DNA of 64,000 nucleotides from Anaerolineaceae bacterium UBA2260 (GCA_002347485.1 DDXM01000037.1:16502-80501); one strand, 5' to 3'; positions 25,083-63,054 are shown, numbered from the stretch's first letter. Notes: generated from the sequence alone by a model not told the origin. A program made the numbers and translations.

Positions 25083-25885
25083 TGCCAATCATCGAATTTG
25101 AAAACGTGTCGGTCCAGGTCCGCGCGTATACCAATCCGACCCCAACGCTCAAAGAGACCTTCGTTTCACTTTTTGCGAAACATAAAGGCGCCACCAGTTA
25201 TGCCGAGTTCTTCGCCTTGAGGGATGTCAATCTCAAGATCTATGAGGGTGAACGGGTGGGAATCCTTGGCTTGAACGGGGCGGGTAAATCCACCATGCTT
25301 AAGGTGATCGCAGGGATTTACCGCCCTCATACCGGGCGTGTGATCGTGCGCGGCGAGGTGACCCCGCTGCTCGAAACAAGGGCAGCGATCAACCCTGAAT
25401 TGACCGGGCGCGACAACATTTACCAGTACGGGGCGATCCACTGCATCCCGGCGGAATACGTGCGCTCGAAGGAACAGGAGATCATCGACTTCTCTGAACT
25501 GGGTGATTTTATCAATGTCCCGGCCAAGTATTATTCAACGGGAATGTTCTCGCGGCTGGTTTTTTCGATCGCTACAATGATCGACCCGGATATCCTGATT
25601 ATCGATGAGGTATTCTCGGCAGGAGATTCGAGCTTCGTCGAAAAAGCGACCAACCGCCTCTTGGGCTTGCTGGATAAATCACGCGCGGTGTTTTTTGTTT
25701 CGCATAACATTGAGCAGGTTTTGCGTATCTGCGACCGCATCCTGGTACTGCAGGAGGGAAGGGTTATCAATGATGGTCCCTCAGTCGAAATGGCACAATT
25801 CTACAAAGAGAATATAATTTCCAAGCGCAAGATCGGCATGGTCAACCGATTCCTGGTAGAAAAGCTTAAGGAAAGGAACGGCTAA
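25079..25885 (+). CDS. wzt: ABC-2 polysaccharide export ATP-binding protein (Wzt/TagH-like), no C-terminal carbohydrate-binding domain
   Basis: The ATG at 25079 overlaps the wzm stop (ATGA). Walker A is GLNGAGKST, the signature is YSTGMFSRL and Walker B is ILIIDEV. At about 268 aa it is an NBD only. Confidence 0.88.
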   Translation: MMPIIEFENVSVQVRAYTNPTPTLKETFVSLFAKHKGATSYAEFFALRDVNLKIYEGERVGILGLNGAGKSTMLKVIAGIYRPHTGRVIVRGEVTPLLETRAAINPELTGRDNIYQYGAIHCIPAEYVRSKEQEIIDFSELGDFINVPAKYYSTGMFSRLVFSIATMIDPDILIIDEVFSAGDSSFVEKATNRLLGLLDKSRAVFFVSHNIEQVLRICDRILVLQEGRVINDGPSVEMAQFYKENIISKRKIGMVNRFLVEKLKERNG

Positions 25886-26208: not shown

Positions 26209-27654
26209 ATGACTCTGCAAAAGCCGACGTTGTACCTGCATGTTGGAACGCACAAGACCGGTACGACTGCTTTACAAACTTCTTTGCAAGCTAGCCGACA
26301 ATTGCTCCTTGACCAGTCTATTCTTTATCCTGAAGGATTATATTGGGGGGGGCATCATGACATCGCCAGGTACATAAAAAATAATTCATACTTGAATTTG
26401 GTTGAAATATTTTTCGAAAACATTAATTCAGAATGTCAACAAAAGAATATCAATAAAGTGGTGATTTCCTCTGAGGATTTCTTCAAGTTTACTAGAGCAG
26501 ATATTCGACGTGAAAAGGCAGAAATTGCCGAAGAATCCCTGGAAAATATGTATAAATTAAAAGAGGTATTGCCTAAAGGTTTTGATATAAAAATTGTTGC
26601 TTACATCCGCAGACAAGATCTAGCGATTGAAGCAAAATACAACCAGCGGGTAAAATTCAAGAATAATTTCACAATTACCGCCAAAGAGTTCAGGGATGAA
26701 ATGATGGACGATATCACCCTAAACTATGATTTTCTTCTTGATCTTTGGGCGAGTGTATTTGGAAATGAAAATATCATTGTGCGGGTATATGAAAAGCAGG
26801 AACTTCCTGATGGTACGGTAGTCGATTTCCTCAAGAAAGTTCTACAGATTACGGATGAGAACGTAATCAAGCAAATCGCGGCTTCTTCAACAATGGAAAA
26901 TCCGCGCTTAAACCGGGATTTACTTGAATATAAGCGAATCCTCAACATGATCTATAAAGATAATCCCCTGGATAGAAATCAGTTGTATCTTGATTTTCTT
27001 CAAGTTGCCTCAGAAATGGAAGGCAGCGATAACTTTAAGGATCTATATTCCATTGAAGAAAGAAGAGCAATTCTTGAACACTATTCTGAATGTAATGCTC
27101 ATGTCGCGAAGATTTTTCTGGGACGGGAAGATGGCAAGTTGTTTAGTGAGTTTACAGAACAGGAAGAAAATTACATACCATACCCCGGATTATCAGTTGA
27201 GAAGGCTATAGAAATTAGCCACAGATTGCAAAACATCAAAATATGTCGCGTCAAAGAGAAAGTCGATTATTTAAATGATTTGGTCACGAGCGTGCAGAAC
27301 TTTAGAGTGATACGAATTTTCCGCAAAATCTTTCATCAATTAAAAAGATCGCAAAATTCATTGCTAATTCACCGGATTGAAAAAAGCGGTTTATTTGACC
27401 AAGAATATTATTTGAATACTTACCCGGAAGTAAAGATCACGGGAATGGACCCCTTAACGCATTACATGGAATACGGGTGGCGGGAAGAATTTAATCCGAG
27501 CAGGAAATTTAATACGTCAATATATTTAAGGCGGTTTCCTGAACTGAGGAGCTCTGGATATTGCCCGCTAGTGCATTATTTAAGAGGGAAAAATAGGTTC
27601 AGAAACCAATCAAATGTTGACGCAATTGAGGAAATTGATCAAGAAGACTATTAA
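26209..27654 (+). CDS. Sulfotransferase-like protein, paralogue 1, with a C-terminal double FDxxYYL...NPLxHY repeat module
   Basis: The N-terminal loop LYLHVGTHKTGTTALQ is 5'-PSB-like, VVISSED follows, and AYIRRQDLAIEAKYNQ is 3'-PB-like. The C-terminus reads SGLFDQEYYLNTYPEVKITGMDPLTHYMEYGWREEFNPSRKFNTSIYLRRFPELRSSGYCPLVHYL. I chose the ATG at 26209 by parallel with paralogue 2. The track's TTG at 26194 is not conserved in paralogue 2. Confidence 0.6.
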   Translation: MTLQKPTLYLHVGTHKTGTTALQTSLQASRQLLLDQSILYPEGLYWGGHHDIARYIKNNSYLNLVEIFFENINSECQQKNINKVVISSEDFFKFTRADIRREKAEIAEESLENMYKLKEVLPKGFDIKIVAYIRRQDLAIEAKYNQRVKFKNNFTITAKEFRDEMMDDITLNYDFLLDLWASVFGNENIIVRVYEKQELPDGTVVDFLKKVLQITDENVIKQIAASSTMENPRLNRDLLEYKRILNMIYKDNPLDRNQLYLDFLQVASEMEGSDNFKDLYSIEERRAILEHYSECNAHVAKIFLGREDGKLFSEFTEQEENYIPYPGLSVEKAIEISHRLQNIKICRVKEKVDYLNDLVTSVQNFRVIRIFRKIFHQLKRSQNSLLIHRIEKSGLFDQEYYLNTYPEVKITGMDPLTHYMEYGWREEFNPSRKFNTSIYLRRFPELRSSGYCPLVHYLRGKNRFRNQSNVDAIEEIDQEDY

Positions 27655-27760
27655 CCAGGAAGTGGAAAATTTCCTTACTTTTACCATCAAATTGAAATTT
27701 TCAAGTTATAAACCCACCAATCACAACTGAATTTTGCTAAAAATCAGCTTAATTTCGGGA

Positions 27761-27769
27761 TGGTATAAT
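27761..27769 (+). promoter_or_regulatory. Extended -10 promoter TGgTATAAT upstream of sulfotransferase-like paralogue 2
   Basis: This is the same 17-nt block as at 26096-26112. It lies 98 nt upstream of the ATG at 27867. Confidence 0.5.
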
Positions 27770-27866
27770 CAAAAATGCTTCGGGTTTTAATTAGACTTGC
27801 ATAATTATTAATTGGCCTAGTGTTGAATAATCAACTTCATATCTAAGGAAATCGAATCGAATCGAT

Positions 27867-29297
27867 ATGACTCTGCAAAAGCCAACTTTGTACCTGCACA
27901 TTGGCACGCATAAGACCGGCACTTCATCCATTCAAATGGCTTTGCATACCCACCGCGAGGAACTGCTCAAGGCGGGTGTGCTTTACCCGGCGCTGAATAA
28001 TGCGTATAATCATTACGAATTGGCAGTTCTTTTAAAGTCACCTGAAGGGATGACAATAATCCAGAACTGGTTTGACGGGATCGTTGAAAAGGTCAATCAG
28101 CGCTCGATCAACAAAGTGGTAATTTCGGCTGAGGCGCTTTATTTCCTGAGGTTTATTGAGTTAGTTAGAACTAAGGATAATCCCCGAAATTCAACTATTA
28201 CTGAAGAAAACTACCGGGAAAAACTCAACAATCTGCGCGCTCTGATCCCGGATATTTTTGACATCAAGGTTGTGGTTTACTTGCGCCGCCAGGATAGTTT
28301 TATCCAATCAGGGTACAGCCAGTTAATAAAAGGATCAGAATACTTTTCTGGTTCCATCAGGGAGTTTATCGACGGCCTCGCAGTTTTCATGGACTATAGC
28401 TTCATGCTGAATCTTTGGGCGGAGATCTTCGGAAAAGAGAACATCCTGGTCAGAGTTTATGAGAAGCAGCAATTACCGGGTGGCAGCGTTCAGGATTTTT
28501 TGCGCGTGATAGAAATACCCACTGATCTCTCCAACATTATCCTTTCAACCACGGACAATTACAACATCCGCCTGAGCAGAGAGCTTTTGGACTATAAACT
28601 GATCTTGAACCAGCTCTTAAAAAATGAAGACCCGGTTCGTAAAGACCAACTGCACTACACCCTCCTAGAGAAATTATCCGAGCAGCCTGAATTCCGCCAG
28701 ACTAACGGAGAATTTCTGACCACTCAGGAAAAACGTGACATCATTTCCCGATATTCCGAGAGCAATGCAAAAGTTGCCCGGGAGTTTTTGGGGCGGGAAG
28801 ATGGGCGCCTGTTCTATGAAGCTTTACCAGAAGAAACAAAAAGTGACAGCTATCCAGGGCTCAGCGTTGAAAGGGCGGTGGAGATCGGCACCCGGTTAAG
28901 CTTCCTGGTCATTGACGGTTATGAGCAGAGAACCAAAATCAAATCCCTTCATTCGGTCCTGTCGTATCCGGAACTGCTTGACGCGCAGGGCTTATTGAAC
29001 ATGTTTCCAATGAAAATCCTCAAGAAGATCTATGTCAAAATCAAGAATGAAAAAGATATTCGGATTATACGGCGCAGCGGCTTATTTGATGCAGAGTATT
29101 ACCTGGCTTACAACCCGGATGTGGCAGCCAGCGGGGTCGAGCCGATCAGGCACTTCGCCTACTCCGGATGGAAAGAACTGCGTAAGCCAAATGATCTGTT
29201 TGATGTCAACGGGTATATTTTAGATCACCCCGAGATCATTCGTTCAGGTATGAACCCCCTGGTTCATAAAATTATTCACAGTAAAGTGGAACGATAA
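27867..29297 (+). CDS. Sulfotransferase-like protein, paralogue 2, with a C-terminal double repeat module
   Basis: Motifs are LYLHIGTHKTGTSSIQ, VVISAEA and VYLRRQDSFIQSGYSQ. The C-terminus reads SGLFDAEYYLAYNPDVAASGVEPIRHFAYSGWKELRKPNDLFDVNGYILDHPEIIRSGMNPLVHKI. Confidence 0.6.
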   Translation: MTLQKPTLYLHIGTHKTGTSSIQMALHTHREELLKAGVLYPALNNAYNHYELAVLLKSPEGMTIIQNWFDGIVEKVNQRSINKVVISAEALYFLRFIELVRTKDNPRNSTITEENYREKLNNLRALIPDIFDIKVVVYLRRQDSFIQSGYSQLIKGSEYFSGSIREFIDGLAVFMDYSFMLNLWAEIFGKENILVRVYEKQQLPGGSVQDFLRVIEIPTDLSNIILSTTDNYNIRLSRELLDYKLILNQLLKNEDPVRKDQLHYTLLEKLSEQPEFRQTNGEFLTTQEKRDIISRYSESNAKVAREFLGREDGRLFYEALPEETKSDSYPGLSVERAVEIGTRLSFLVIDGYEQRTKIKSLHSVLSYPELLDAQGLLNMFPMKILKKIYVKIKNEKDIRIIRRSGLFDAEYYLAYNPDVAASGVEPIRHFAYSGWKELRKPNDLFDVNGYILDHPEIIRSGMNPLVHKIIHSKVER

Positions 29298-29300
29298 ACT

Positions 29301-30689
29301 ATGTCCTCTATCAAACCAACCCTCTTCATCCATATCGGTTTACCAAAGACTGGAACTACGGCATTACAAACAGCTTTGTCCGCCAGTCAGAAGCTTCTTC
29401 TTGAAAACAGGATCTATTATCCCAACGCGTTTTTTTGGGGCGGTCACCATGATATCGCCCGCTGGTTGAAGCACGGGAGTGATGATACTTTGCTCATCAA
29501 TTTTTTTGATGAGATGAAATCCGGGTGTTTGGAAAACGCGTGCGAAAAGGTTGTCATTTCCTCCGAGGGTTTCTATTATCCGATCGCCAGCGAGATTGAA
29601 AGAGATAAGGCAACCTGCTCGCTCGAGATTCGGAAGAATCTTTTGAGGTTAAGGCAAGTCATTCCTGAGGACTTTAACGTGAAAATCGTGGCATACCTGC
29701 GGCGGCAAGACCTCGCCCTTGACTCCAACTACAATCAGCGCGTTAAGTACAGTCACTCTTTCACGCTTTCTCCAAGGGAATTTTTGCAACGCACTTTTGA
29801 ACGGTTCAACCGGGACTACGATTTTCTCCTGGATGCGTGGGCTGAGGTGTTCGGGATTGGAAATATTATCGTCAGAGTGTATGAAAAAGGGCAACTTCCT
29901 GATGGTACGATCGTTGACTTTTTACGGAACGTATTGCAGATCGAAGATGACGGACTGATCAAGAAGGTCACCGCTTCTTCAACCATCGAAAATCCCCGAT
30001 TGAGCCGTGACCTGTTGGAATATAAGCGTATTTTAAACAAGATTTATAGCAACCAGCCATTGATGCGCGATCAGTTGTACCTTGATTTCCTGCAAGTATC
30101 TCAGCAGATGGAAGGCGCAACGAAATCCGGGAACATCTTCACGGTTGAAGAAAGGCTGGAAATCCTCTCCAAATACCAGGAAGGCAACGAAAGAGTGGCA
30201 AGGAAATTCCTGGGTCGGGAAGACGGGAGACTGTTTTACGATCCCTTGCCGGATAAAGAAAAGGACCCTCCGTACCCGGGCTTATCCGTTGAAAAATCCA
30301 TCGAGATCAGTTGGCGATTGCATTTGCTGGAAATGAATCGCATCGAGAAGAATGTGGATGCGTTAAACGCCTTCATATCACAAATTAAAGGACTGTTTGG
30401 CGTAAGAGTATTCAGAAAGATTTACAGGTTTTTTAAAGAAAGGAAGGCTTCTGAAATTTATCGAAGAATCGAAAAGAGCGAGCTGTTTGATCGCGAATAT
30501 TACCTGAGCACCTATCCTGTGGTAAAGGAGACAGGTTTGGATCCCCTGCAGCATTACCTGAATCATGGATGGAAAGAGGGTTTTAATCCAAGCCGCAACT
30601 TTAACACGGCTGAATATCTCTTAAAATATCCAGATCTCGCCAGCAATGATTTGAACCCACTTGTTCATTACCTGCAAAATAGAAAGTAA
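29301..30689 (+). CDS. Sulfotransferase-like protein, paralogue 3 (closest to paralogue 1), with a C-terminal double repeat module
   Basis: Motifs are LFIHIGLPKTGTTALQ, VVISSEG and AYLRRQDLALDSNYNQ. Long near-identical stretches are shared with paralogue 1, for example NIIVRVYEK..LPDGT.VDFL, ENPRL.RDLLEYKRILN and QLYLDFLQV. The C-terminus reads SELFDREYYLSTYPVVKETGLDPLQHYLNHGWKEGFNPSRNFNTAEYLLKYPDLASNDLNPLVHYL. The gene starts 3 nt after the paralogue 2 stop. Confidence 0.6.
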   Translation: MSSIKPTLFIHIGLPKTGTTALQTALSASQKLLLENRIYYPNAFFWGGHHDIARWLKHGSDDTLLINFFDEMKSGCLENACEKVVISSEGFYYPIASEIERDKATCSLEIRKNLLRLRQVIPEDFNVKIVAYLRRQDLALDSNYNQRVKYSHSFTLSPREFLQRTFERFNRDYDFLLDAWAEVFGIGNIIVRVYEKGQLPDGTIVDFLRNVLQIEDDGLIKKVTASSTIENPRLSRDLLEYKRILNKIYSNQPLMRDQLYLDFLQVSQQMEGATKSGNIFTVEERLEILSKYQEGNERVARKFLGREDGRLFYDPLPDKEKDPPYPGLSVEKSIEISWRLHLLEMNRIEKNVDALNAFISQIKGLFGVRVFRKIYRFFKERKASEIYRRIEKSELFDREYYLSTYPVVKETGLDPLQHYLNHGWKEGFNPSRNFNTAEYLLKYPDLASNDLNPLVHYLQNRK

Positions 30690-30727
30690 TGAAAATTGAT
30701 GCCTAATTATCCTAAAGGCTTGGAAGT

Positions 30728-32341
30728 ATGACGCGATTATTTCATCGAACGAGGAATACTGTGGAAGGTGGCGACAACATCGTTTATCTTCTTGATCGAT
30801 ACCTGTTTGAAAATGATTCGACTGTGATGATCGGCGGTTGGTGTTTTTCAAAACGGACCGGCAAGGTTTCTATTTCTGTCAGTGGCGTTGAGGCCAGGGT
30901 CACCAGGCATTACCGTGATGATCTCGCAAGGGATTTTCCCGCCTACAAGGAGCAGATTCGCAACAGCGGTTTTGAGATCAGGATCAGTAAAAAGGACGCG
31001 AACACAAAGAAATTCGGGATTACTTTCTCGGACGGAACTGAAACGGTGGATGTTCCCAATGACAGGCGGAAGATCTTTACCGTGATGCTGCGGAACCGGG
31101 TGAAGAAACTGATCAAAGGGGGGATTTTCCTGATCCTGGGCATCATAAGCGCGCTTGACCTGGGAAAGTTTAGAAGGCAATGGATCACCCAATTCAAGCG
31201 GCACGCGCAGTTGATCCAACCCGGTAAGGCTGAGGAGCCCGAAGGTGTTCAAAGGATCGATTCAGACATTAAATATGTTGCCTTTTACCTGCCGCAATTT
31301 CACCCGATCAAAGAGAATGACGAGTGGTGGGGAAAAGGGTTCACAGAGTGGCGTAACGTGGCGCGCGCGTTACCGATGTACGTGGGACACTACCAGCCCC
31401 ACATCCCCTCTGACCTGGGGTTTTATGACCTTCGCAACGCGCGAACGATCGAAAACCAGGTGAACCTGGCGCGCCGATTCGGGATCTATGGGTTTTGTTT
31501 TCATTACTATTGGTTCGGAGGAAGAAGACTGCTCGAAGAGCCCTTGGATATTTTCCTGGAGCACCAGGAGATCGACTTTCCCTTCTGCATCTGCTGGGCG
31601 AACGAGACATGGTCGCGCAGGTGGGATGGATCAGAAAACGATATACTGATGAAGCAGGATCATACCGAGGAGACGGATCTGCGCTTCATCCAGGACGCGG
31701 TGGAACTCTTCCGTGATAAGCGCTACATTCGTATCAACGAAAGACCGGTGCTCATCATTTACCGCCCTGATCTCTTCCCGTCACTGCCGGACACAATTGA
31801 GCATTGGAAAACTTACTGCAAAGAACAGGGTATGCAGCCGCCTTTCGTGATCGGCGCGCTGACCTTTGATATCGAAGATCCCACCATCTTTGGTTGCGAT
31901 GCAGGGGTCGAGTTCCCGCCTCACGGGTTGCGCTTGCGGCAGATCACATACAAGAAACGCATGCTGAATCCCAAATTCAGCGGGATTGTTTTTGAAGCCA
32001 GGAATATCATTCAAGATAAACTGTACCTGGAGAGCACTCCCTTCCTGAAATTCAGGACCGTCTTCCCGGGATGGGACAACACGCCGCGCAAGCCCGAAAA
32101 AGGCTTTGTGTTTGAACACACCTCTCCAGCGTTCTACAAAGAATGGCTTAAAGATGTCAGCCAATATACCAATACAAATATTGCGCCTGAGCATAGGTTT
32201 GTTTTCATCAACGCGTGGAATGAGTGGGCGGAAGGCGCGCACCTTGAACCTGATTTTCAATATGGGACGGGCTACCTGGAAGCCACAGCCGAGGTGCTCA
32301 AGGAATTGAGAACCAGAGGTGATCAACCTGCCGGTGAATAA
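30728..32341 (+). CDS. WbsX-family glycosyltransferase/glycoside-hydrolase-like protein with an N-terminal extension and one TM helix
   Basis: YVAFYLPQFHPIKENDEWWGKGFTEWRNV ... FCFHYYWFGGRRLLE ... CICWANETWSRRWDG ... INAWNEWAEGAHLEP is the WbsX-family (lipopolysaccharide biosynthesis protein) signature as I remember it. The first ~160 aa plus the helix IKGGIFLILGIISAL are additional. Confidence 0.75.
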   Translation: MTRLFHRTRNTVEGGDNIVYLLDRYLFENDSTVMIGGWCFSKRTGKVSISVSGVEARVTRHYRDDLARDFPAYKEQIRNSGFEIRISKKDANTKKFGITFSDGTETVDVPNDRRKIFTVMLRNRVKKLIKGGIFLILGIISALDLGKFRRQWITQFKRHAQLIQPGKAEEPEGVQRIDSDIKYVAFYLPQFHPIKENDEWWGKGFTEWRNVARALPMYVGHYQPHIPSDLGFYDLRNARTIENQVNLARRFGIYGFCFHYYWFGGRRLLEEPLDIFLEHQEIDFPFCICWANETWSRRWDGSENDILMKQDHTEETDLRFIQDAVELFRDKRYIRINERPVLIIYRPDLFPSLPDTIEHWKTYCKEQGMQPPFVIGALTFDIEDPTIFGCDAGVEFPPHGLRLRQITYKKRMLNPKFSGIVFEARNIIQDKLYLESTPFLKFRTVFPGWDNTPRKPEKGFVFEHTSPAFYKEWLKDVSQYTNTNIAPEHRFVFINAWNEWAEGAHLEPDFQYGTGYLEATAEVLKELRTRGDQPAGE

Positions 32342-32379
32342 GCATTTTCCCGGGCAAATAAAAAAAAGGTGGAAAAACC

Positions 32380-33111
32380 TTGTCTAATCGTCAGATCGTT
32401 CTCCATATCGGATTCAGCAAAACGGGATCCTCAGCGCTGCAGGTTTTCCTTTCTCAAAACCAGAACCTGCTGGCCAGTTACAACTACGGGTATCCCGAGA
32501 TCGATCCTTACCACTTTGAAAAGGCAAAAAAGGGCGAGATTTCGAGTGGAAACGCTCATTTGCTGCGCGAGGTACTTCACCAGGATACCCAAAACGCTTC
32601 CTTAAATCAATCCGCTCGCTTACTGACACATTTTCTTAGCGCCAATGGCCGCAATTCGACCCTTATTATTTCCTCCGAGAGCTTCGGGGTGATGACCGAG
32701 GAAGAGATCGCTTTTTTCTCCAGATTATTGAGACAATTTTCGCTTGATGTGAAGATCATCTGTTATGTGCGCCGGCAGGATCAGTATATCGAAGCGGCAT
32801 GGACGCAGTGGCAAAGCAAACTCTCTGATTCGTTGCAGCTTGATTTAAGAACGAACCCGGATGTTGTGAAATCTAGGATTGACCCGATCCGGCATTACGT
32901 AGCGAACGGGTGGCATGAAGGAAGGGACCCTGCGCCGGGTTTTTCCACGGCGAATTACCTGGCTGAACATCCGGATATCGCCGTATTAAAACTTAACCCA
33001 TTTGTTCAGTACATTCTAGACCAAAAAATAACTCTTTCAAAATGTTCACCGGGTGAATTTCAAAGGATCGATCCGGCTAGTACCAACCATCGGGAAAAAC
33101 ATAACAGGTAA
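32380..33111 (+). CDS. Truncated sulfotransferase-like paralogue 4 (N-terminal half fused directly to the repeat module)
   Basis: The TTG start lies 7 nt after AAGGTGG. Motifs are VLHIGFSKTGSSALQ, LIISSES and CYVRRQDQYIEAAWTQ. These run straight into LDLRTNPDVVKSRIDPIRHYVANGWHEGRDPAPGFSTANYLAEHPDIAVLKLNPFVQYI. The product is 243 aa against 460-480 aa for paralogues 1-3. Confidence 0.55.
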   Translation: MSNRQIVLHIGFSKTGSSALQVFLSQNQNLLASYNYGYPEIDPYHFEKAKKGEISSGNAHLLREVLHQDTQNASLNQSARLLTHFLSANGRNSTLIISSESFGVMTEEEIAFFSRLLRQFSLDVKIICYVRRQDQYIEAAWTQWQSKLSDSLQLDLRTNPDVVKSRIDPIRHYVANGWHEGRDPAPGFSTANYLAEHPDIAVLKLNPFVQYILDQKITLSKCSPGEFQRIDPASTNHREKHNR

Positions 33112-33114
33112 CGA

Positions 33115-36100
33115 ATGGCAGGGTATTCAAACGAGCGCAGGTTACACAAAGACATCAAGCTGATCAAAGGGTCAGGTTTGTTCGACGCCAGTTGGTACCT
33201 ATCCACTTACCCTGAGGTAGCAGGCAGCGGAGAATCCCCAGAATTGCATTACTTGTTGAGGGGGGGATTTGAGGGTTATGACCCGTGTGAGATATTTTCG
33301 AGCAGCGCCTACCTTGAACAATATCCTGATGTTCGGGAAGCCGGGATGAATCCTCTGGTTCATTATGTTACCTTCGGTAAAAAAGAAGGCCGTAGTGTCG
33401 AGGTCAGCGAACAAGCCGGCAATGTAGCAAAAGAACTGATCGCCACAAAACAGGAGTATTACCGACTGTTTGGCTGTTTACCGGATCTCACGGCCCCGGT
33501 CACCTTTTCAGAAAAGATCCTTGCGTATAAGTTGTTCTATACCGAACAAGACCTGGGCAGGTTTGTCGATAAGGGCAGGGTTCGGGAATTTGTGGCAAAA
33601 ACCATTGGGGAAAAATACCTCATTCCGATGATTGGGATCTTTTCCGATCCGGATGATATCGATCTTAAGGAATTGCCCGACCAGTTCGTTATAAAAGCCA
33701 CACATGGTTCTGGATGGAACGCGTTCTGTTCGAGTAAAGCAAATTTTGATTGGGCAGGTCAAAAAAAAATCCTCAGGGAATGGTTGAATAGCAATTTCTA
33801 CGACCGATTTTTCGAATCCGCCTACATGAATGTACCGCCAAGGCTTCTCATCGAACATTTCATTCACGATGAGTACGGGATTGTCCCCCGGGATTACAAA
33901 TTCTTCTGTTTTAACGGTGAGCCCGCTTTGATCCAGGTGGATTCAGACCGGTTTTCAGGACATAATCGAAATTTTTATGATCTTAAATGGAATCTGCTCA
34001 ATGTCAGGGGAAATTACCCAAATAACCAGGGAAGGTTGGAAAAACCCGCCAACCTGGCAAAAATGCTGGAAGTCAGCAGGTGTCTCTCCGCGGGTTTTCC
34101 TTTTGTGCGTGTTGACCTTTATGCTATCCCTGAAGTGTACTTTGGCGAATTGTCCTTTTATCCTGAAGCTGGATTCTTGCGATTGACGCCTGTGTCGTGG
34201 GATAAAAAACTTGGCGAGTGTTTTGAGATACAAAAGTACTTAGACGAATCTTGCATAAATTTAAACGGATCATTCGATCCATTGGACCTGTTCCGGGTCC
34301 GTTCAGAACGGTTCGGTTTCGATTTTTCCTGTCATCGACAGGACCGACCTGCATATACGGCGCTCGCTAATCAAGACCTGACCAGCTATTTGTTCAGGCA
34401 AATGGTCAGGGGGGTGAAGACGTATATCGACGCCGACGCCGGCTGCGGCTTCTACGCGTTGCTCGCTGCTAAAAGCAACCCGGAGCTCGATATCCATTGT
34501 TTTGAATCTGCGCCGGTCATGCAAGACCTATTGCAAACCAATCTTGCTGACAACCATGTACAGGCTTCTATCAACGATGAACTCCTGCGAGAAATCGTGC
34601 ATGGACCGGCGCTCATCCGGATGGACGGCGGACCTGGCACCTCGAAAACACTGGAAAGACTGAAAGGGACCATCGAACATACCGCTGATGTACGGCTCTT
34701 GATTCATGATCTTGATGCGAATTCAAATACTGCCCCCAGGTTCCTAGAGGGTATTTTCGCGAAATTGGAACAGTGGGGATTTGACCTGTTTGTGGTGGAT
34801 GAAGAAAACAGGATTTACCGAAGGTATCCTTCCGCGGAGGAGGATACGCGCGCAAACAAACCGGGTCCGCGCAGCCTGGTGGCTATTAAAAAAGAGCAAT
34901 CCTTGAATCTCCTCTTCTTCTCTCATTCGGCGAACCTGTTTGGAGCTGAACGCTCCCTGCTTGATCTGACTGCCAGCCTGACCAGGCGATTCGGCGTGCT
35001 GTGCACGGTGGCACTACCGGAAGAGGGTCCGCTCAAACAAGCGCTGGAGAGCGCAGGAGTGGCCACCCGGGTCATCCCGTACAGCTGGTGGTGCGCGCCC
35101 TCCGGGTACCTGCCGGCGGACAAGGACGGCATCGACCGGACACTGGCTGAAAGTTATCAGGCGATGAGGGAACATTCACAGGCGATCGCAGGCATCGGCG
35201 CTGACCTGGTGGTGACCAGCACAATGGTCATTCCCTGGGGGGGGCTGACAGCCAAAAACCTGGATGTGCCGCATATCTGGTGGGTGAAGGAATTTGGCCA
35301 GCTGGATCATGGACTGGAATTCTACCTGCCCTTCGAGAAGACGCTCGAGGTGATCGATGAAGCCTCGAACTACATTGTGGTTCCTTCCAAAGCGCTCAAG
35401 GATACTCTCTTTGAGATGGTCTCTGCTGAGAAAGCGATCGTAGCGTATAACCTCAAACCGGTTTTCACCGGGTCTGATAGGATGGATGAAACATTCTTTT
35501 TTGATGATCAGGCGCTTAAACTCCTGATCTTCGGGTTGGTGATGCCCTCCAAGGGGCATGAGGAAGCCATCCAGGCCGTTGATAGGTTGCTCCAGGAGGG
35601 ACGCAACGTCGAGCTTTGCATCCTGGGGGACTCCAGCAATCCATACGGCGAACACCTGAAGGAATACGTGCGGTCCATCGGCCGCGGGGATCAAATTCAT
35701 TTCCATGAATTCACAACGAACGTGCGCGGGGCGATCGAACAGTCGGATATCGGACTGGTATGTTCCAGGAATGAGGCTTTCGGCAGGGTAACCGTGGAAG
35801 CCATGATGCTGGGGAAACCGGTCATCGGCACAAGGTCAGGGGGGACCATCGAACTGATCGAAGATGGGAGTGACGGGTTACTTTATGACCCGGGCAATCT
35901 TGATCAATTGGTCGAGAAAATTGAGTTTTTCCTCACTTCACCCGGTAAGGTTGTCGAATTCGGGGAGAGGGCTCAACAAAACATTCTGAGGAAATTAGAC
36001 GAAAAGCCTGTGGATGACCTCATGTATCAGTTAAGTCTGGGATTGAAAAAGGGGAGAAACCCGGGTTCAGCAAAATTATCTGATCTCGCCGCGGAGTGGG

Positions 36101-36306
36101 AAGGCAACGTTCCCAAGGCTTTTAAAGCAAGGATTTCTGATCTAGAAAAAAAGATCAGCGACCTGGAAGGATCGATCCGCGAGATTGAATCCAGCAAAAA
36201 GTGGAAACTCGCATTGAGGTTGTACGGAATCCGGAATGCGCTCGTACCGGAGGGATCCCTGCAGGATAGAGTTATTCAGAAGATATTCAAAAAGCCAATG
36301 GGGTGA
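33115..36306 (+). CDS. 1063-aa multidomain glycan-modifying enzyme: double repeat module, TupA-like ATP-grasp, possible FkbM-like methyltransferase fold, GT4 glycosyltransferase, C-terminal coiled coil
   Basis: - aa 20-92: SGLFDASWYLSTYPEVAGSGESPELHYLLRGGFEGYDPCEIFSSSAYLEQYPDVREAGMNPLVHYVTFGKKEGR, the same module as in the sulfotransferase-like paralogues.
- aa ~125-375: FSEKILAYKLFY...DKGRVREFV...QFVIKATHGSGWN...DYKFFCFNGEP...FVRVDLY...YFGELSFYPEAG, matching the TupA-type ATP-grasp.
- aa ~430-540: YIDADAGCGFYALLAA...CFESAP...IRMDGGPG, a weak FkbM-like match.
- aa ~590-990: GT4 with EAFGRVTVEAMMLGKPVIGTRSGGTIELIEDGSDGLL.
- aa ~1010-1040: ISDLEKKISDLEGSIREIE, a heptad coiled coil. Confidence 0.7.
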   Translation: MAGYSNERRLHKDIKLIKGSGLFDASWYLSTYPEVAGSGESPELHYLLRGGFEGYDPCEIFSSSAYLEQYPDVREAGMNPLVHYVTFGKKEGRSVEVSEQAGNVAKELIATKQEYYRLFGCLPDLTAPVTFSEKILAYKLFYTEQDLGRFVDKGRVREFVAKTIGEKYLIPMIGIFSDPDDIDLKELPDQFVIKATHGSGWNAFCSSKANFDWAGQKKILREWLNSNFYDRFFESAYMNVPPRLLIEHFIHDEYGIVPRDYKFFCFNGEPALIQVDSDRFSGHNRNFYDLKWNLLNVRGNYPNNQGRLEKPANLAKMLEVSRCLSAGFPFVRVDLYAIPEVYFGELSFYPEAGFLRLTPVSWDKKLGECFEIQKYLDESCINLNGSFDPLDLFRVRSERFGFDFSCHRQDRPAYTALANQDLTSYLFRQMVRGVKTYIDADAGCGFYALLAAKSNPELDIHCFESAPVMQDLLQTNLADNHVQASINDELLREIVHGPALIRMDGGPGTSKTLERLKGTIEHTADVRLLIHDLDANSNTAPRFLEGIFAKLEQWGFDLFVVDEENRIYRRYPSAEEDTRANKPGPRSLVAIKKEQSLNLLFFSHSANLFGAERSLLDLTASLTRRFGVLCTVALPEEGPLKQALESAGVATRVIPYSWWCAPSGYLPADKDGIDRTLAESYQAMREHSQAIAGIGADLVVTSTMVIPWGGLTAKNLDVPHIWWVKEFGQLDHGLEFYLPFEKTLEVIDEASNYIVVPSKALKDTLFEMVSAEKAIVAYNLKPVFTGSDRMDETFFFDDQALKLLIFGLVMPSKGHEEAIQAVDRLLQEGRNVELCILGDSSNPYGEHLKEYVRSIGRGDQIHFHEFTTNVRGAIEQSDIGLVCSRNEAFGRVTVEAMMLGKPVIGTRSGGTIELIEDGSDGLLYDPGNLDQLVEKIEFFLTSPGKVVEFGERAQQNILRKLDEKPVDDLMYQLSLGLKKGRNPGSAKLSDLAAEWEGNVPKAFKARISDLEKKISDLEGSIREIESSKKWKLALRLYGIRNALVPEGSLQDRVIQKIFKKPMG

Positions 36307-36375: not shown

Positions 36376-36618
36376 TCACTTTAATGTCCGGGTCTTTTCT
36401 TCGATGCTCGCCATCAGTTCACCCACGTTGGCGAAGTCCTGGATCTCGCTTTGATCGAATTCGATGCCAAATTCCAGTTCGATCGCGAGCATCAGGTTGA
36501 TATGCGAAAGGGAATCCCATTCGTCCACATCATCCGCCGTCAGTTGCGGCGTGAGCTCGATCGCATCGTTATCAAAAACGGTAACGAAAACCTGTTGTAA
36601 TCTCTCTTTAAGGTCCAT
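36376..36618 (-). CDS. Acyl/peptidyl carrier protein
   Basis: The 80-aa acidic four-helix pattern has the phosphopantetheine serine in DEWDSLSHINLMLAIE. It lies immediately downstream of the ligase with a 3-nt gap. Confidence 0.8.
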   Translation of the reverse strand: MDLKERLQQVFVTVFDNDAIELTPQLTADDVDEWDSLSHINLMLAIELEFGIEFDQSEIQDFANVGELMASIEEKTRTLK

Positions 36619-36621
36619 TGT

Positions 36622-38229
36622 TTACTCCATCGTGGAAATGTCGCCGGGGTCTTTCCCCTCGTAGACTGCTTTCAATACCCTGCGCAGAATTTTACCACTC
36701 TGGTTCTTCGGGATGCGATTGATAACGCGAAACTCCGCCGGGATCGCAGTGGTGGATACCTTGTTGCTGACGTAAATACGGCATTTCAATTCCAGTTCGC
36801 GGCTCCAGGCTTGTCCGTTGCGCAATTTAACGAAAGCGATGATTTTCTTGTGCAAAAGCGGGTCATCTGCCCCGATGACCGCCACATCCACGATCTCTTC
36901 GATCTCCAGCAGCGCGCTTTCCACTTCAAAAGGTCCCACCAGGTGACCGGCAGTGTTGATCACATCGTCCGCGCGGCTGACGTACCAGAAATACCCGTCC
37001 TCGTCGCGCCAGGCCAGGTCACCGGTGATGTAGATCTCTCCTTGAAATTTTTCCGCATATGCCGCGTCATTGTGAAAATAGCCGCGGAACATCGAGCCCC
37101 AGCCCATCCGCAGGCATAACAAACCCTGTTCGCCCGCGGGCAGGATATCCATATTCTCGTTGCAGATGAACGCTTCGGCACCGGAGCGTGGCTTTCCCAT
37201 CGACCCGGGTTTGACAGGCATGGGGGGGTGATTACCGATCATCATCGACCCCGTTTCCGATTGCCACCAGGTGTCATAGATCTCCACCTTGAAGGTCTTT
37301 CTTCCCCAATGGTAGATCTCCGGATTCAATGGTTCGCCGACGCTGTATATGCGTTTGAGGGATGAGAAATCAAGGGTAAGGAAAGCGTTTTCATCTTCCT
37401 GCATGAGCATTCTCAACGCAGTCGGTGCTGTGTACCACACATTGACTTTCTGGTTTTGCAGGATCTTCAACCAGCTGGCCGCGTTGTAACTCCCGCTGTA
37501 TTGTGCCTGGAGCGCGCCGCTGCTGAAAGGCGCGATCAACCCGTAGACGATGCCGGTGATCCACGCCGGGTCGGCGGTGCACCAATAGATGTCCCGTTCC
37601 TCCAGCTGCATGATATCGCGAAAGGATTGGCGCATATCACCTAAAGCGCCGTGAACGTGCAATGCGCCCTTGGGTTTGCCGGTGGAACCGGAGGTGTACT
37701 GCAGAAAAGCTGGTGTTTCTTTATCCACCATGTGGGGGTAATCGAAAAGTCCGCCGGTAACCGCAATCAGGCGCTTGAGGCTCAGGATAGTGTCGTCCTG
37801 GTGGTCGTCGAGATCGGTCACAAGTATCTTTTTCAAAGCGGGCAGCCTGTCCTTAATGGCGATGATTTTGCGCAGCAGGCTCCTGCGAGTGAGGATAATG
37901 CGAGTTTGGCTGTTGGAAAGCCTGTCGAGCAATCCCTCTTCGCCAAGCGTGCTGAAGAGGATGCAGGAGACCGCCTGGTTCTTTAGTATTCCGAAGAAAG
38001 AGTTGATCAGCTGCAAACTGCGGGGGAGGAAGATGCTGATCGTATCCCCTGGTTTTACATTGAGTTGTTTCAATACCGCAGCCAAACGGTTTGATTCGCG
38101 TTCAAAGTAGGCAAAGGTGAAGCTTTCAGTTGACAGGTCATTTTCGATCCAGCGCAACGCTTCGCGACGCTCCTGGCCATTTTCGACAAAGCGGGTTACG
38201 CATGCGTAGGCAATGTTCTCGACAAACAT
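36622..38229 (-). CDS. AMP-forming adenylating enzyme (acyl-CoA synthetase / acyl-carrier-protein ligase family)
   Basis: The ANL core motifs are LQYTSGSTGKPKG, YWCTADPAWITG, GEPL, TGDLAWRDEDGYFWYVSRADDVI and PKNQSGKILRR. I place the start at the ATG at 38229 (MFVENIAY...) because GGGAGGA sits 4 nt upstream. The track ORF extends to 38307. Confidence 0.85.
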   Translation of the reverse strand: MFVENIAYACVTRFVENGQERREALRWIENDLSTESFTFAYFERESNRLAAVLKQLNVKPGDTISIFLPRSLQLINSFFGILKNQAVSCILFSTLGEEGLLDRLSNSQTRIILTRRSLLRKIIAIKDRLPALKKILVTDLDDHQDDTILSLKRLIAVTGGLFDYPHMVDKETPAFLQYTSGSTGKPKGALHVHGALGDMRQSFRDIMQLEERDIYWCTADPAWITGIVYGLIAPFSSGALQAQYSGSYNAASWLKILQNQKVNVWYTAPTALRMLMQEDENAFLTLDFSSLKRIYSVGEPLNPEIYHWGRKTFKVEIYDTWWQSETGSMMIGNHPPMPVKPGSMGKPRSGAEAFICNENMDILPAGEQGLLCLRMGWGSMFRGYFHNDAAYAEKFQGEIYITGDLAWRDEDGYFWYVSRADDVINTAGHLVGPFEVESALLEIEEIVDVAVIGADDPLLHKKIIAFVKLRNGQAWSRELELKCRIYVSNKVSTTAIPAEFRVINRIPKNQSGKILRRVLKAVYEGKDPGDISTME

Positions 38230-38468
38230 TAATCCTCCCTCAAGGATTGGACATCCTGCGCCACTGGAAATGACGGGTGTGGAATCACCGGAGATCAGGT
38301 CATCCACTGCTACCCGTACCCAGGGTAGATCCAGAATGTGAACCGATGGTACGCCAACCTATTCTTGCGTTCCAACAATCCGGCGAGCAGACCTTCCATA
38401 GGGTTGAAGTCAAACCACCGTAACAGGACGCGGCGTAATTGCCATTATACTCAAAGTAAAGAACTGCA

Positions 38469-50536: not shown

Positions 50537-50561
50537 GGTGGCTGAACAACCAGAAGCCTGA

Positions 50562-59686: not shown

Positions 59687-61504
59687 TTATGGGGTAAAGA
59701 GCACTCCGCGTTTTTGCAGTAGATGTTTTACCATCACGACGCCCTCATCCAGGCTTTCGCGATCCTTCAGGTGAATATCAAATTTGATATCCGTCGTTAC
59801 CTTGCCACCGACCCACACCACATTAACCATGTCCTTATCGATGACCGTTTCCAGTATATCGAGATCATCCTGGGTAAATTCGATGGCTGTGACGATGAGC
59901 AGCATGCCTGCATCGAGGAAAAGGTGTGAAACCTCTGCAAAACGGCGCACGTGTTCCCGCCAACCACCCGGCGCGTCATGGCGTTTCAGATCGGCGTTGA
60001 CGCCGTACAGCAGTGAGCCAATGCCCAGGTAATAAACGAATTTTCCGTCCTTGAACAATTGTTTTTCCAACTTGCGGGCTAGTGTCTTGCGTCCGGCATG
60101 TCGGGTACCGGTGATGACGACGATGGATGAGCGCTGGTTATACATTTCAGCTCGTTGTGCCATCGTCACATCAGAGGGGATCCATTTTAAGTTGCGTGTA
60201 TATACGTCCTCACGCAGCTCGGTATCTTCGTCTGTCAGCGCCTCAAGGACGATCCCGCCGCCGCGGATCTCATATTCATCCACCAGCACGAAGCGGCTCG
60301 TTTCAGGGAAGACTTCGGAGGTATCAAACGAGATTGGATGCGCCAACCGGAAAGTGACTTCAGCCACGTCATGATGGCCGATAATGGTGCGGTCATTCTG
60401 ATTCTTGTAATCGGAAGCATCAATCACCTTGTGGATGGCTTCCACTCGCACCTTTTCGTGTGAGGTACCCAGTTTGAAAATGTAGTCCTTGCCCATGCTG
60501 AGCGGTTGCTTGCCAAGCCAGAAAATGCTGGCGCGCAACCGTGAACTGACAAAAGGCGGAGTATCCTGCACGTGCGTGGCGATCTGTCCGCGGTTGACAT
60601 AGATCTGCTCGGCCATGGTAAATCCCACCGACTGGCCAGTCACTCTTGAGGTGATCTTTGGCGTATTGAAGGACTCGATGGTTTTAACTTTTGTGCGTTT
60701 GCCTGAAGGGTAAAAGACCAATTCGTCGCCAATTTTTAATTGACCACTGGCGATGCTCCCGGCTACGATTCGCCGTTTGTCTCCGTAATTGTTGAATTTA
60801 TACACATCCTGCACCGGGATGCGCAATGGCAAATCAACGAGTGGTTTTTCCTTGGAGAAGAGGTCGAGCGCGTCGAGCACAGTCGGGCCGGTGTGCCAGG
60901 CGAGTCGCGGGCTTGGGTTGACCACGCCATCGCCCTCGCGGCCACTGACAGGGATGTAATACATGGGTTGGATGCCCAAGTCTGCGAGGTAATGCCCGTA
61001 TTCGTCAACGATGGAGTTGAATACCTCCTCGCTGTAATTCACGAGGTCCATCTTATTGACTACCACCACGATCTTCTTGATGCCGAGCATACCCAGCAGA
61101 TAACCATGCCGGCGTGAATTTTCCTGCACGCCTTCCTCGGCATCGATGACCAGGATGGCGGCTTCAGCGTGCGAAGCACCGGTGACCATATTCTTGATGA
61201 ATTCAATGTGACCAGGGGCGTCAATGATGATGTAGTTGCGTTTCTTGGACTGGAAGAACACGCGCGCCGAGTCGATGGTGATGGACTGCGCCTGTTCATC
61301 CTTCAACGCGTCAATCAGGTAGGCAAATTCGAAAGGTTTTCCGCTCTTGAGGGTCTTTTCCCGGATCGCTTCAAGCTTGCCCTTGGGCAGTGAATTGGTA
61401 TCCGCCAGCAACCTCCCAATGATGGTGCTCTTGCCATGGTCAACGTGGCCGACCACGACCACGTGCATTTGTTCCTTCGCGAGGTCCATTCCGTTGTCTG
61501 CCAT
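59687..61504 (-). CDS. cysN: Sulfate adenylyltransferase subunit 1 (CysN GTPase) fused to a degenerate APS-kinase-like C-terminal domain
   Basis: The GTPase motifs are [14 protein letters not shown] and NKMD, with EF-Tu-like domains II and III. The C-terminal 147 aa align with the stand-alone CysC in this window. However, the P-loop is [10 protein letters not shown] instead of [10 protein letters not shown], and LGIGSLL replaces LDGDNIR. Confidence 0.88.
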
Positions 61505-62386
61505 TTACATGTATCCTTCTCTGCGCAGCGTTTCCAATCCGCCACCGTCGTCCTTGTCTTGCGCACGGCCTGAGCGCTCGGCGATATTGGCGAACTTGCC
61601 CACGCTCAACTCGTCGATGATCTCCTGCACTGTTCGGGCTGTGGACTCAACGGGGAATGTGCACGGGTAGCAGCCGAGTGAACGGTAGCGTTTCCCGTTT
61701 CCTTGGTTGTAATACAGGCTCACAGTAGGGATGTTCTCCGCCTGGATGTATTCCCAGATGTTCAGCTCCGTCCAATCAAGCAATGGATGAATGCGCACAT
61801 TGGTGCCTGGCGCGAAATCTGTCTTGTACTGGTTCCAGAATTCAGGCGGCTGTTCAGCGATATCCCATTCATTCTGCCGGTCGCGCGGTGAGAAATAACG
61901 CTCCTTGGAGCGCGAACCTTCTTCATCAGCACGCGCGCCAACGATAACGCCAGTGAACGGTTCGGGATTGATCTCTTCCTCGTAGCGGTCGGTATCGTGG
62001 TTGAAAATACGGCGCCGGCCTTCACCATTGAGGGTTTGGCGCAGCGCGTCGGTCTTGAGGAGTTTGCAGCAGGTTAAGCGGTCCACCGCGCCATCCGGGA
62101 AGGTACGTTTTGCTTCGAGCGCCTCACGATTCTCCCCGATCACCATGGTCAGTTTCATTTCGCGCACCAGGCGGTCGCGGTACTCGATCATTTCCGGGAT
62201 CTTATAATGGGTGTCGATGTGGATCAGGGGGAAGGGGACATGCCCAAAAAAGGCTTTACGTGCCAGCCAAAGCAACACGGTGCTGTCCTTACCCATTGAC
62301 CACAGCATCCCCAGATTTTTAAAATTCGCATAGGCTTCGCGCAGGATATAAACGCTGCGGTACTCGAGTTCTCGTAAATGATCCAT
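61505..62386 (-). CDS. cysD: Sulfate adenylyltransferase subunit 2
   Basis: [42 protein letters not shown]-like and CYPCT-like segments match the PAPS-reductase-fold CysD along the full length. The stop abuts the cysN start. Confidence 0.92.
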
Positions 62387-62402
62387 TGGTAATAGAATTC
62401 CC

Positions 62403-63014: not shown

Positions 63015-63054
63015 TTTTTTTCAACAACCTTTCAGGATCGACTCGAACTTTTAG

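Follow-up and report, generated by a model that had tools for sequence, protein, structure and literature searches.

A 38-residue helical repeat between modifying enzymes and glycosyltransferases: a possible docking adaptor in a bacterial glycan locus

Introduction

In polysaccharide systems that depend on ABC transporters, a terminator with a coiled-coil ruler serves as a membrane-associated scaffold whose membrane-proximal region recruits the polymerase, and the catalytic modules are variably distributed over fused and separate proteins (PMC11231755). Coiled-coil rulers have been established for WbdD and WbbB (PMC11231755). How separate enzymes join into a complex for polymerization, modification, and termination is known for these polysaccharides only from a small number of enterobacterial serotypes, in which the WbdD C terminus and coiled-coil scaffolds have this role. 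Here, we examined a stretch of 64,000 nucleotides from Anaerolineaceae bacterium UBA2260 (GCA_002347485.1 DDXM01000037.1:16502-80501), referred to as the window, in which five adjacent open reading frames (ORFs) carry an unnamed 38-residue helical repeat that we call R. Four of them, P1 to P4, are paralogues related to sulfotransferases, and the fifth encodes a 1,063-residue multidomain protein with a glycosyltransferase (GT) domain. R lies after modifying domains and before GT domains in proteins from many bacteria, and the pair of units in the window may act as a docking adaptor.

The locus resembles the described systems in several respects. WbdD-WbdA of Escherichia coli O9a and Klebsiella O3/O5, the fused WbbB of O12, and ORF6 of O7 are likewise dependent on ABC transporters (PMC11231755). 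In WbdD-WbdA, a modifier or terminator is followed by a coiled coil and then by a membrane-proximal amphipathic region that contacts the polymerizing GTs, and R is found at what would be the corresponding point; as with WbdD and WbbB, single-polypeptide and separate-protein versions both exist. The likeness is one of layout, with no sequence relationship, and neither the R module nor the catalytic domain of P1 to P3 had a match among PDB sequences. None of the described WbdD-type prototypes has been reported to contain a 38-residue repeat. Unlike WbdD, the modifiers in the window are sulfotransferases in three to four paralogues and may therefore decorate the chain rather than terminate it. 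Also unlike the WbdD pathway, the window Wzt (~268 residues) has no carbohydrate-binding domain coupling export to a terminal cap, and unlike the enterobacterial hosts of WbdD, the window organism looks monoderm-like, with an LCP ligase encoded in the window. Compared with the WbdD layout, the fused relatives of the window proteins and the Enterobacter, Dinoroseobacter, and Paracoccus proteins described below have long heptad-rich segments followed by a helix with an SWR motif, whereas P1 to P3 have just a 60-residue helical hairpin instead of an extended coiled coil.

Results

Ten repeat units in five adjacent genes

A motif scan and a hidden Markov model (HMM) of the units, applied to the six-frame translation, identified ten R units in the window, two in each of the five ORFs (Table 1). 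The ten-unit HMM found no copy outside these ORFs in the six frames of the whole window. To avoid circularity, a second HMM was built from 888 units of unrelated proteins, with the window sequence excluded. This independent HMM recovered all ten units with domain i-Evalues from 2e-16 to 2e-4, and 20 shuffles of the window translation gave no match at an i-Evalue of ≤0.01. An earlier note on this DNA had described a double repeat module in five neighboring proteins, and this description was confirmed. The period is 38 residues, in the window and throughout the family, and not about 33 as the note had proposed; its module coordinates were near the HMM unit bounds, with deviations of about 10 to 40 nucleotides. 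The pattern FDxxxYL had been ascribed to both copies in every protein, but the first unit of P4 has lost this start, with six residues gone, and is aligned by the independent HMM from profile position 7. The module is C terminal in P1 to P4 and N terminal in the 1,063-residue protein, as the note had recognized.

Within the window, first units are 43% identical to first units and 34% identical to second units, indicating that the two-unit module was inherited as a whole. A basic lead-in ending in SGLFD is present, and this element, also pointed out earlier, proved to be a family-wide mark of the array start, with S at position -3, G or P at -2, L at -1, a hydrophobic residue at -6, and a basic residue at -8. 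Junctions between units inside arrays read HPL or NPL, unlike the lead-in. The AlphaFold2 (AF2) model of the module of the 1,063-residue protein alone (pLDDT, 91.5; pTM, 0.82) contains the lead-in helix and three helices per unit, and the model of P3 likewise has three short helices in each unit.

A widespread family without annotation

To count the family, we searched 1.84 billion cluster representatives (clusters at 50% identity) exhaustively with a profile; a word-index search with a five-module profile had yielded no more than 29 proteins, all of them short or fragments, and was set aside. R-bearing representatives numbered 28,638 at an E value of ≤1e-3, 19,203 at ≤1e-10, and 5,038 at ≤1e-30. 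Arrays have 2 to 26 units overall and 5 to 23 in the best 150 matches, in which the start-to-start spacing was 38 residues in 859 unit pairs. About 20 of the 38 positions are conserved in the consensus, FD[TSA]x[WYF]YLxx[NY]PDVAx[AS]GxNPLxH[YF]LxxGxxEGR[DN]P[HN]PL. Carriers among named genomes belong to the Alpha-, Beta-, Gamma-, and Deltaproteobacteria, Acidobacteriota, Verrucomicrobiota, Cyanobacteria, Planctomycetota, Chloroflexota, Leptospiraceae, and others. R was also found on 156 plasmid records, including those of Azospirillum, Bradyrhizobium, Ralstonia, Cereibacter, Escherichia (12 records), and Enterobacter (4 records).

The window modules had no match in Pfam-A 2025 or NCBIfam 20.0, the R profile had none among PDB sequences, and a Foldseek search of the PDB with the AF2 model of the module returned nothing with an E value of <4. 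Literature searches for the R motif strings and for 38-residue repeats found nothing relevant. These results agree with the earlier description of the module as uncharacterized, and R appears to be an unannotated, very abundant family. A Pfam model of R would annotate much currently unlabeled sequence.

In format, R resembles the armadillo (Arm; ~42 residues), HEAT, TPR, and Sel1 repeats, which are helical units of 38 to 42 residues in tandem and in variable number, and it would share with Arm-type repeats a conserved core and variable surface positions; AF2 gives three helices per unit. Helical-repeat arrays usually serve as protein-binding scaffolds. Unlike Arm, HEAT, and TPR, R has a distinct motif (FDxxxYL, NPDV, NPLxHY, and EGRxP). 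Membership in these families was rejected because six long arrays showed no consistent Pfam match at an E value of ≤10 and Foldseek gave no analogue in the PDB. A summed Arm score occurred in 1 of 53 array-rich proteins, with no single stretch passing alone. The octatricopeptide repeats, also of 38 residues, are unrelated RNA-binding repeats of organelles.

Long arrays do sum to a score for DUF7669 (PF24706), with E values of 1.1e-12 for locus L060 and 1.5e-9 for one of the 53 scanned proteins. Such matches (L060, L011, and one array-rich protein) cover model positions ~27 to 57 of 75, and no single stretch passes alone in the best case. The window modules had no match to DUF7669 at an E value of ≤10. 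The DUF7669 model probably contains one R-like unit. To our knowledge, DUF7669 is itself of unknown function and so gives no functional clue.

When the module model was compared with BFVD by Foldseek, weak matches were obtained in giant viruses (Hyperionvirus, Harvfovirus, Fadolivirus, Indivirus, and cedratvirus), with 25 to 47% identity over 36 to 95 columns. Those with annotation were GTs, a dTDP-sugar reductase, DUF5672, an AlgX/AlgJ-like protein, and an O-fucosyltransferase. A scan of viral contigs with the bacterial R consensus found none. One candidate for a standalone small R protein (P0017) was rejected as probably an assembly or frameshift artifact, as its contig (L095) has fragmented genes.

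Conserved order of modifier, repeat, and glycosyltransferase

Loci for the analysis of genes near R were collected with a consensus three-unit query and are thus biased toward consensus-like arrays of ≥3 units. In 53 array-rich proteins, the Pfam partners were mainly GT2 (13 proteins) and GT4-type domains (10 proteins), together with RgpF, GT61, WbsX, Methyltransf_24 (MT24), PIG-L, PAP2, a sulfotransferase, and one M10 peptidase. Neighboring genes in 15 loci encode mostly nucleotide-sugar epimerases or dehydratases, GT4, GT2, and methyltransferases. In 23 of 80 loci, a gene for a Wzt-like ATPase lies no more than 8 kb away, and 12 of 80 have genes for both Wzm and Wzt; in several Wzt-associated loci, the R-bearing gene begins right after wzt. 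The association with Wzm/Wzt is clear but no rule; strict dependence on this exporter was rejected on these counts, and docking on it, which the earlier note had named as one possibility, has no support as a general feature.

The order of domains was then counted with local HMMs in 359 proteins. R preceded GT domains in the arrangements R-GT2 (63 proteins), R-GT4 (30), R-GT2-GT4 (23), and R-GT4-GT2 (8), and a modifier preceded R in MT24-R-GT (14), sulfotransferase-R (ST-R; 12), and MT24-R (5). The reverse order, GT-R, was seen in about 5 or fewer proteins, in comparison with about 140 in which R comes before GT2 or GT4. The polarity of R is therefore conserved, after modifying domains and before GT domains. 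The window follows the same polarity in trans, with ST-R four times and R-(ATP-grasp...GT4) once. What looked earlier like a module that moves between termini is the fused order split over polypeptides.

A Pfam scan covered seven R proteins whose genes adjoin wzt, and six of them share a modifier, 200 to 400 residues of intervening sequence, an R array, and GT2 and/or GT4. The modifier is an N-terminal Methyltransf_24 or class I methyltransferase, or Sulfotransfer_3 in an Anaerolineae metagenome-assembled genome (MAG); the seventh protein (L056) has an R array and GT4 with no recognized modifier domain. Examples encoded directly after wzt are MT24-R-GT2-GT2 in Desulfoprunum, MT24-R-GT2-GT2-GT4 in Azospirillum, Sulfotransfer_3-R-GT2-GT2 in the Anaerolineae MAG (all from Pfam), and MT24-Rx9-GT2, with nine units, on Azospirillum plasmid p6. 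In the fused proteins, the stretch between modifier and R consists of a heptad-rich coiled coil, an amphipathic SWRxTxxLR helix, and a basic helix ending in SGLFD. An SWR-like motif was located within 120 residues upstream of the array in 30 of 231 proteins, a ~9-fold enrichment over the expected 0.014 per 120 residues, at a median distance of 56 residues from the array. The fuller form S(x)SWRxTxPLR was observed after coiled coils and ahead of R in six loci (L031, L014, L022, L068, L094, and L098). By analogy, this helix may be membrane binding, like that of WbdD.

Split versions in unrelated lineages

The same order was also found divided between adjacent genes. On the Enterobacter hormaechei IncY plasmid pEh25_3, within a kps-type capsule cluster, a 498-residue protein, WP_231313139, has an N-terminal domain, a long coiled coil, the sequence NSISWRATAPIR, the basic lead-in, and two C-terminal R units; after a gap of 17 nucleotides, a 1,103-residue protein, WP_306675705, begins with the lead-in and two R units and continues with GT2, GT4, and GT4. 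On plasmid pDSHI02 of Dinoroseobacter shibae, a 296-residue coiled-coil protein ends with the lead-in and one R unit and is followed, after 5 nucleotides, by a 1,302-residue protein with the lead-in, two R units, GT4, GT4, and GT2; this pair has the accessions WP_012187258 and WP_012187257. A MAG locus (L034) contains an ORF with four C-terminal units adjacent to one with three N-terminal units. In two further cases, the break lies just ahead of R: on Paracoccus yeei pLM20P4, a sulfotransferase/coiled-coil protein ending at the SWR helix adjoins a protein with six N-terminal R units followed by GTs, and in L044, an MT24 protein without R adjoins R-GT2-GT4.

Where the split lies within R, the two halves are two complete capped modules facing each other, because both carry the array-start lead-in. 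For the same reason, simple fission of one continuous array was rejected as the origin of the facing modules. The same split arrangement occurs in unrelated lineages. Several R-bearing genes lie within 8 kb in 12 of 80 loci; one metagenomic locus (L096) encodes three R proteins, namely, a 146-residue protein with the lead-in and two units, R-GT2, and R-GT4. In addition, we inspected the surroundings on the IncY plasmid of E. hormaechei, where the kps-like ABC transporter capsule cluster includes GT61 and GT92 genes and insertion sequence (IS) elements. This cluster would be a genetically tractable setting for the module.

The proteins that carry the module

P1 to P4 had no Pfam or NCBIfam match at normal thresholds, and only below threshold did the P-loop match Sulfotransfer_1, _3, and _4 (E values of 0.04 to 0.1). 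Some homologues of the domain carry precomputed PF00685 or PF13469 matches. The four paralogues share 30 to 53% identity, with P1 53% identical to P3; gene callers place the P1 start at 26209, giving 481 residues. The AF2 model of P3, made with 83 homologues (pLDDT, 91.6), is composed of an alpha/beta catalytic domain (residues 1 to 305), a helical hairpin (330 to 393), and the module (396 to 462). In a Foldseek search of the PDB, all seven matches at an E value of ≤1e-3 were sulfotransferases dependent on 3'-phosphoadenosine 5'-phosphosulfate (PAPS), including TPST1 (5wrj), NDST (1nst), the bacterial protein 3rnl, TPST2 (9wwe), and NDST1 (8ccy); 3-OST and other sulfotransferases rank just below this threshold. 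The TM-scores are modest, at 0.4 to 0.5 on the target. Among the 83 homologues of the catalytic domain, K16, T17, and Q23 are invariant and G18 and T19 nearly so, and R134 and D137 of the motif RRQDxxxxS (R134...S142) are also invariant. The KTGT segment (K16-T17-G18-T19) lies at the position of the 5'-phosphosulfate-binding (5'-PSB) site and R134...S142 at that of the 3'-phosphate-binding (3'-PB) site, with an Arg-to-Ser spacing that we take to be equal to that of known sulfotransferases. Based on the fold, these motif positions, and genes for PAPS supply in the window, P1 to P3 are probable glycan sulfotransferases, and three unannotated ORFs have thus gained a predicted function. A protein identical to P2 was found on 20 metagenome contigs with the same locus, and the window locus was present in metagenomes of alkane- and toluene-degrading enrichment cultures.

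P4 consists of ~147 residues of the sulfotransferase N terminus joined straight to the module, and two thirds of the catalytic domain are gone. Its length of 243 residues is conserved across many contigs. The corresponding slot in related loci holds a full-length ST-R paralogue of 467 to 473 residues, indicating that P4 is a remnant. The enzyme is probably dead, although the module was retained. Thus, the carriers comprise four likely enzymes and not five, the number given in the earlier note.

The 1,063-residue protein begins with the lead-in and two R units (residues 9 to 98), followed by a TupA-like ATP-grasp domain (134 to 370, from Pfam), a methyltransferase-like region (~375 to 610), recognized by a faint RfbT match in an orthologue, and GT4 (~610 to 960). 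Its C terminus has a coiled coil and then an amphipathic helix, SSKKWKLALRL, a variant of S(x)SWRxTxPLR.

Proposed role of the repeat

R is a non-catalytic, accessory element, because of 120 homologues of the catalytic domain of P1 to P3, 91 have no R. The earlier note had already regarded the module as something other than a catalytic domain, and a catalytic role was rejected given this dispensability, the tiny helical unit, and the variable copy number. In the models, the catalytic domain has the sulfotransferase fold, and the R region forms separate short helices. Since fused and split forms recur, Rosetta-stone logic suggests that in the window, the sulfotransferases and the GT protein meet at their R-bearing ends.

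We propose that the module of the window, a capped pair of R units, is a docking adaptor. We infer the binding itself, and we give this reading, the likeliest of those considered, slightly less than an even chance. The single-polypeptide order of modifier, coiled coil, amphipathic helix, R, and GT2/GT4 would be split here over separate proteins, and the adaptor would keep the sulfotransferases attached to an assembly complex at the membrane that contains GTs, either because like modules pair or because R binds a shared scaffold element. A functional parallel would be the membrane-proximal C-terminal region of WbdD, which recruits the WbdA polymerase. In a wider form of this proposal, adaptors built as three-helix solenoids would make up a new family, R, and would provide a physical link between polymerases and the enzymes that modify or terminate the chain. 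In split systems, pairing in trans would occur between capped modules of one to three units; in fused proteins, the geometry of the complex would depend on the unit number, and with it chain length or the pattern of modification. This extension is possible but, on balance, doubtful. Clusters with R number in the tens of thousands and come from most bacterial phyla, and R marks the same junction in fused and split forms. If R is a docking element, the composition of such complexes would be predictable from sequence, and R would provide a concrete structural target and a handle for glycoengineering by which a chosen modifying enzyme could be recruited to a polymerase. An adaptor family would be a second, unrecognized solution beside the coiled-coil system of ruler and recruitment.

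Several observations weigh against docking. A single R-bearing gene was found within 8 kb in 68 of 80 loci. In one locus (L090), the neighbor of two ST-R proteins is a GT2-GT2 protein that has no R, and another (L091) encodes a lone ST-R, so that pairing of R with R in a neighbor is not obligatory. Arrays of up to 26 units exceed what a dock requires. The polarity HMMs were seeded from a few Pfam-defined domains, and the sample was biased to many-unit, consensus-like proteins. Finally, R also forms C-terminal blocks of 3 units, a ~13-residue linker, and 3 units in proteins with RTX, GSDH, Calx-beta, trypsin-like, PhoX, PPC, Ig-like, or M10 metallopeptidase domains. As these proteins look secreted, docking of cytoplasmic enzymes cannot apply to them, and R is not exclusive to cytoplasmic glycan enzymes. 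The expectation that similar repeats occur in other glycan-locus proteins was borne out by many fusions to glycan enzymes and by loci with several R proteins, but not as an exclusive association. In the wider form of the proposal, R modules may also pair in cis in these 3+3 blocks. Proteins with such blocks are mostly from Alphaproteobacteria (P0198, P0199, P0201, P0206, P0209, P0212, P0214, P0227, and P0229, and the plasmid match H7), and a short ...F.DG.F tail comes after the block.

In another explanation, R is a repeat that binds a ligand, such as a glycan, a lipid carrier, or the membrane surface, and is not a protein dock. R would then keep the growing polymer or the membrane close to the GT domains and anchor secreted proteins to cell-surface polysaccharide, which covers the 3+3 blocks of the RTX, Calx-beta, trypsin-like, PhoX, PPC, Ig-like, and M10 protease proteins as well as the ST-R proteins without an R partner in L090 and L091. 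Small tandem units rich in aromatic residues on many catalytic domains typify polymer binders; R occurs in arrays of 2 to 26 units, its consensus is rich in F, W, Y, and H, and it stands directly ahead of a GT, with no modifier, in about 124 R-GT proteins. The choline- and glucan-binding CW_binding_1 repeats are also small, aromatic-rich tandem units that are non-catalytic, vary in copy number, and have diverse catalytic partners. Unlike these extracellular beta-hairpin solenoids, R is helical and, in glycan enzymes, cytoplasmic, and shows no sequence or fold match to them. The conserved aromatic residues may simply belong to the core, and conservation of ~20 of 38 positions across phyla with differing glycans is more in keeping with a scaffold than with a specific sugar site. 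The all-alpha fold is unlike any known carbohydrate-binding module or lipid-binding domain (Foldseek against the PDB), and ligand binding predicts neither the strict modifier-R-GT polarity nor the gene pairs with facing modules. We consider this explanation unlikely.

Still less likely, R arrays could be rigid solenoid spacers that supplement the coiled-coil ruler or stand in for it, so that the array would fix how far the modifying or terminating site is from the polymerase site and hence chain length. The unit number of 2 to 26 in a strict 38-residue register, the position of arrays between the terminator or coiled coil and the GT domains, and the precedent of the rulers in WbdD and WbbB (PMC11231755) are consistent with a spacer. 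However, the one or two units at protein termini in the window, Enterobacter, and D. shibae are too short and misplaced for a ruler, the fused proteins already contain a coiled coil, many R-GT proteins have no terminator domain, and R is also found in secreted proteins. That R is a neutral linker with no specific function, shared through duplication of the sulfotransferase gene and gene fission, is the least likely of these explanations: duplication does explain four of the five copies, since P1 to P4 are paralogues, and the greater likeness among first units fits inheritance of the module as a whole, but the 28,638 clusters with strong conservation and strict register across phyla, the complete capped module of the unrelated 1,063-residue protein, its retention in the decayed P4, and the repeated origin of the split arrangement in unrelated lineages argue against it.

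Gene surroundings in the window

The genes for Wzm, Wzt, P1, P2, P3, a WbsX-family GT, P4, and the 1,063-residue protein form a co-directional row (Table 1). With both HMMs, no R copy was found in the WbsX GT among the carriers. The window Wzt is too short for a C-terminal carbohydrate-binding domain, suggesting that export is probably not gated by a terminal cap; the Wzt proteins encoded beside fused MT24-R-GT proteins have 450 to 490 residues (L014, L015, L031, L068, L069, L071, and L093). Upstream of the row are rmlABCD and a divergent gene for a two-domain GT2, and downstream are genes for an AMP-binding enzyme with a small carrier protein, a NusG-like protein, and a Bac_transf initiating transferase.

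Table 1. Coordinates of genes, repeat modules, and other features in the window; i-Evalues of units are from the independent HMM
Feature	Coordinates	Strand	Description and evidence
BY-kinase-like P-loop protein, LysM protein, LCP-family ligase, second Bac_transf (upstream)	47909-52127 and 13410-14876		
844-aa ORF	14943-17477		No Pfam match
Wzm	24228-25082	+	ABC-2 permease; Pfam PF01061; directly upstream of carriers
Wzt	~25079-25885	+	ATPase, ~268 aa; Pfam PF00005; directly upstream of carriers
P1	26194..27654	+	Sulfotransferase-fold protein with C-terminal lead-in and two R units; ORF, 486 aa from TTG
P1 module	27358-27621	+	Lead-in helix 27358-27393; units 27394-27507 and 27508-27621; i-Evalues 1.7e-15 and 3.2e-6
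P2	27867..29297	+	Sulfotransferase-fold protein, C-terminal module; ORF, 476 aa
P2 module	29049-29294	+	Lead-in, then units 29085-29198 and 29199-29294; i-Evalues 5.9e-15 and 1.6e-4
P3	29301..30689	+	Sulfotransferase-fold protein, C-terminal module; ORF, 462 aa; AF2, Foldseek
P3 module	30450-30686	+	Lead-in, then units 30486-30599 and 30600-30686; i-Evalues 6.1e-16 and 5.1e-9
WbsX-family glycosyltransferase	30728..32341	+	Pfam PF14307, E=2.6e-130; between carriers
P4	32380..33111	+	Internally deleted paralogue, 243 aa; alignment to paralogues
P4 module	32827-33054	+	Two R units; i-Evalues 1.1e-11 and 1.9e-5
1,063-aa protein	33115..36306	+	Multidomain protein; Pfam; gene begins 3 nt past P4 stop codon
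1,063-aa protein module	33139-33408	+	Lead-in helix; units 33181-33294 and 33295-33408; i-Evalues 2.5e-16 and 2.2e-16
1,063-aa protein C terminus	35990-36303		Coiled coil, then amphipathic helix
AMP-binding (acyl/aminoacyl-adenylating) enzyme and 80-aa carrier protein	36376-38307	-	Adjoin TupA-like ATP-grasp protein
267-aa and 1,418-aa proteins	44932-45735 and 52434-56690		Only weak Rha78A-like Ig-domain matches
639-aa ORF	45823-47742	-	No Pfam match
CysN/CysC fusion (GTPase and APS kinase) and CysD	59687..62386	-	Pfam GTP_EFTU and APS_kinase; PAPS_reduct
CysN/CysC and CysD with TauE/SafE-family anion transporter	59687-63804	-	~25 kb from sulfotransferases

The 80-residue carrier protein showed a weak PP-binding match, seen in an orthologous locus. 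Together with the adenylating enzyme beside the ATP-grasp protein, it suggests decoration of the polymer with an amino acid or acyl group. The CysN/CysC, CysD, and TauE genes look like a dedicated PAPS supply, reminiscent of NodPQ. No tRNA genes were found in the window. The LCP-family ligase is fused to a low-molecular-weight phosphotyrosine phosphatase. From these genes and those listed with them in Table 1, the envelope would be monoderm-like and bear wall-linked glycopolymers, and the window would encode more than one glycan pathway.

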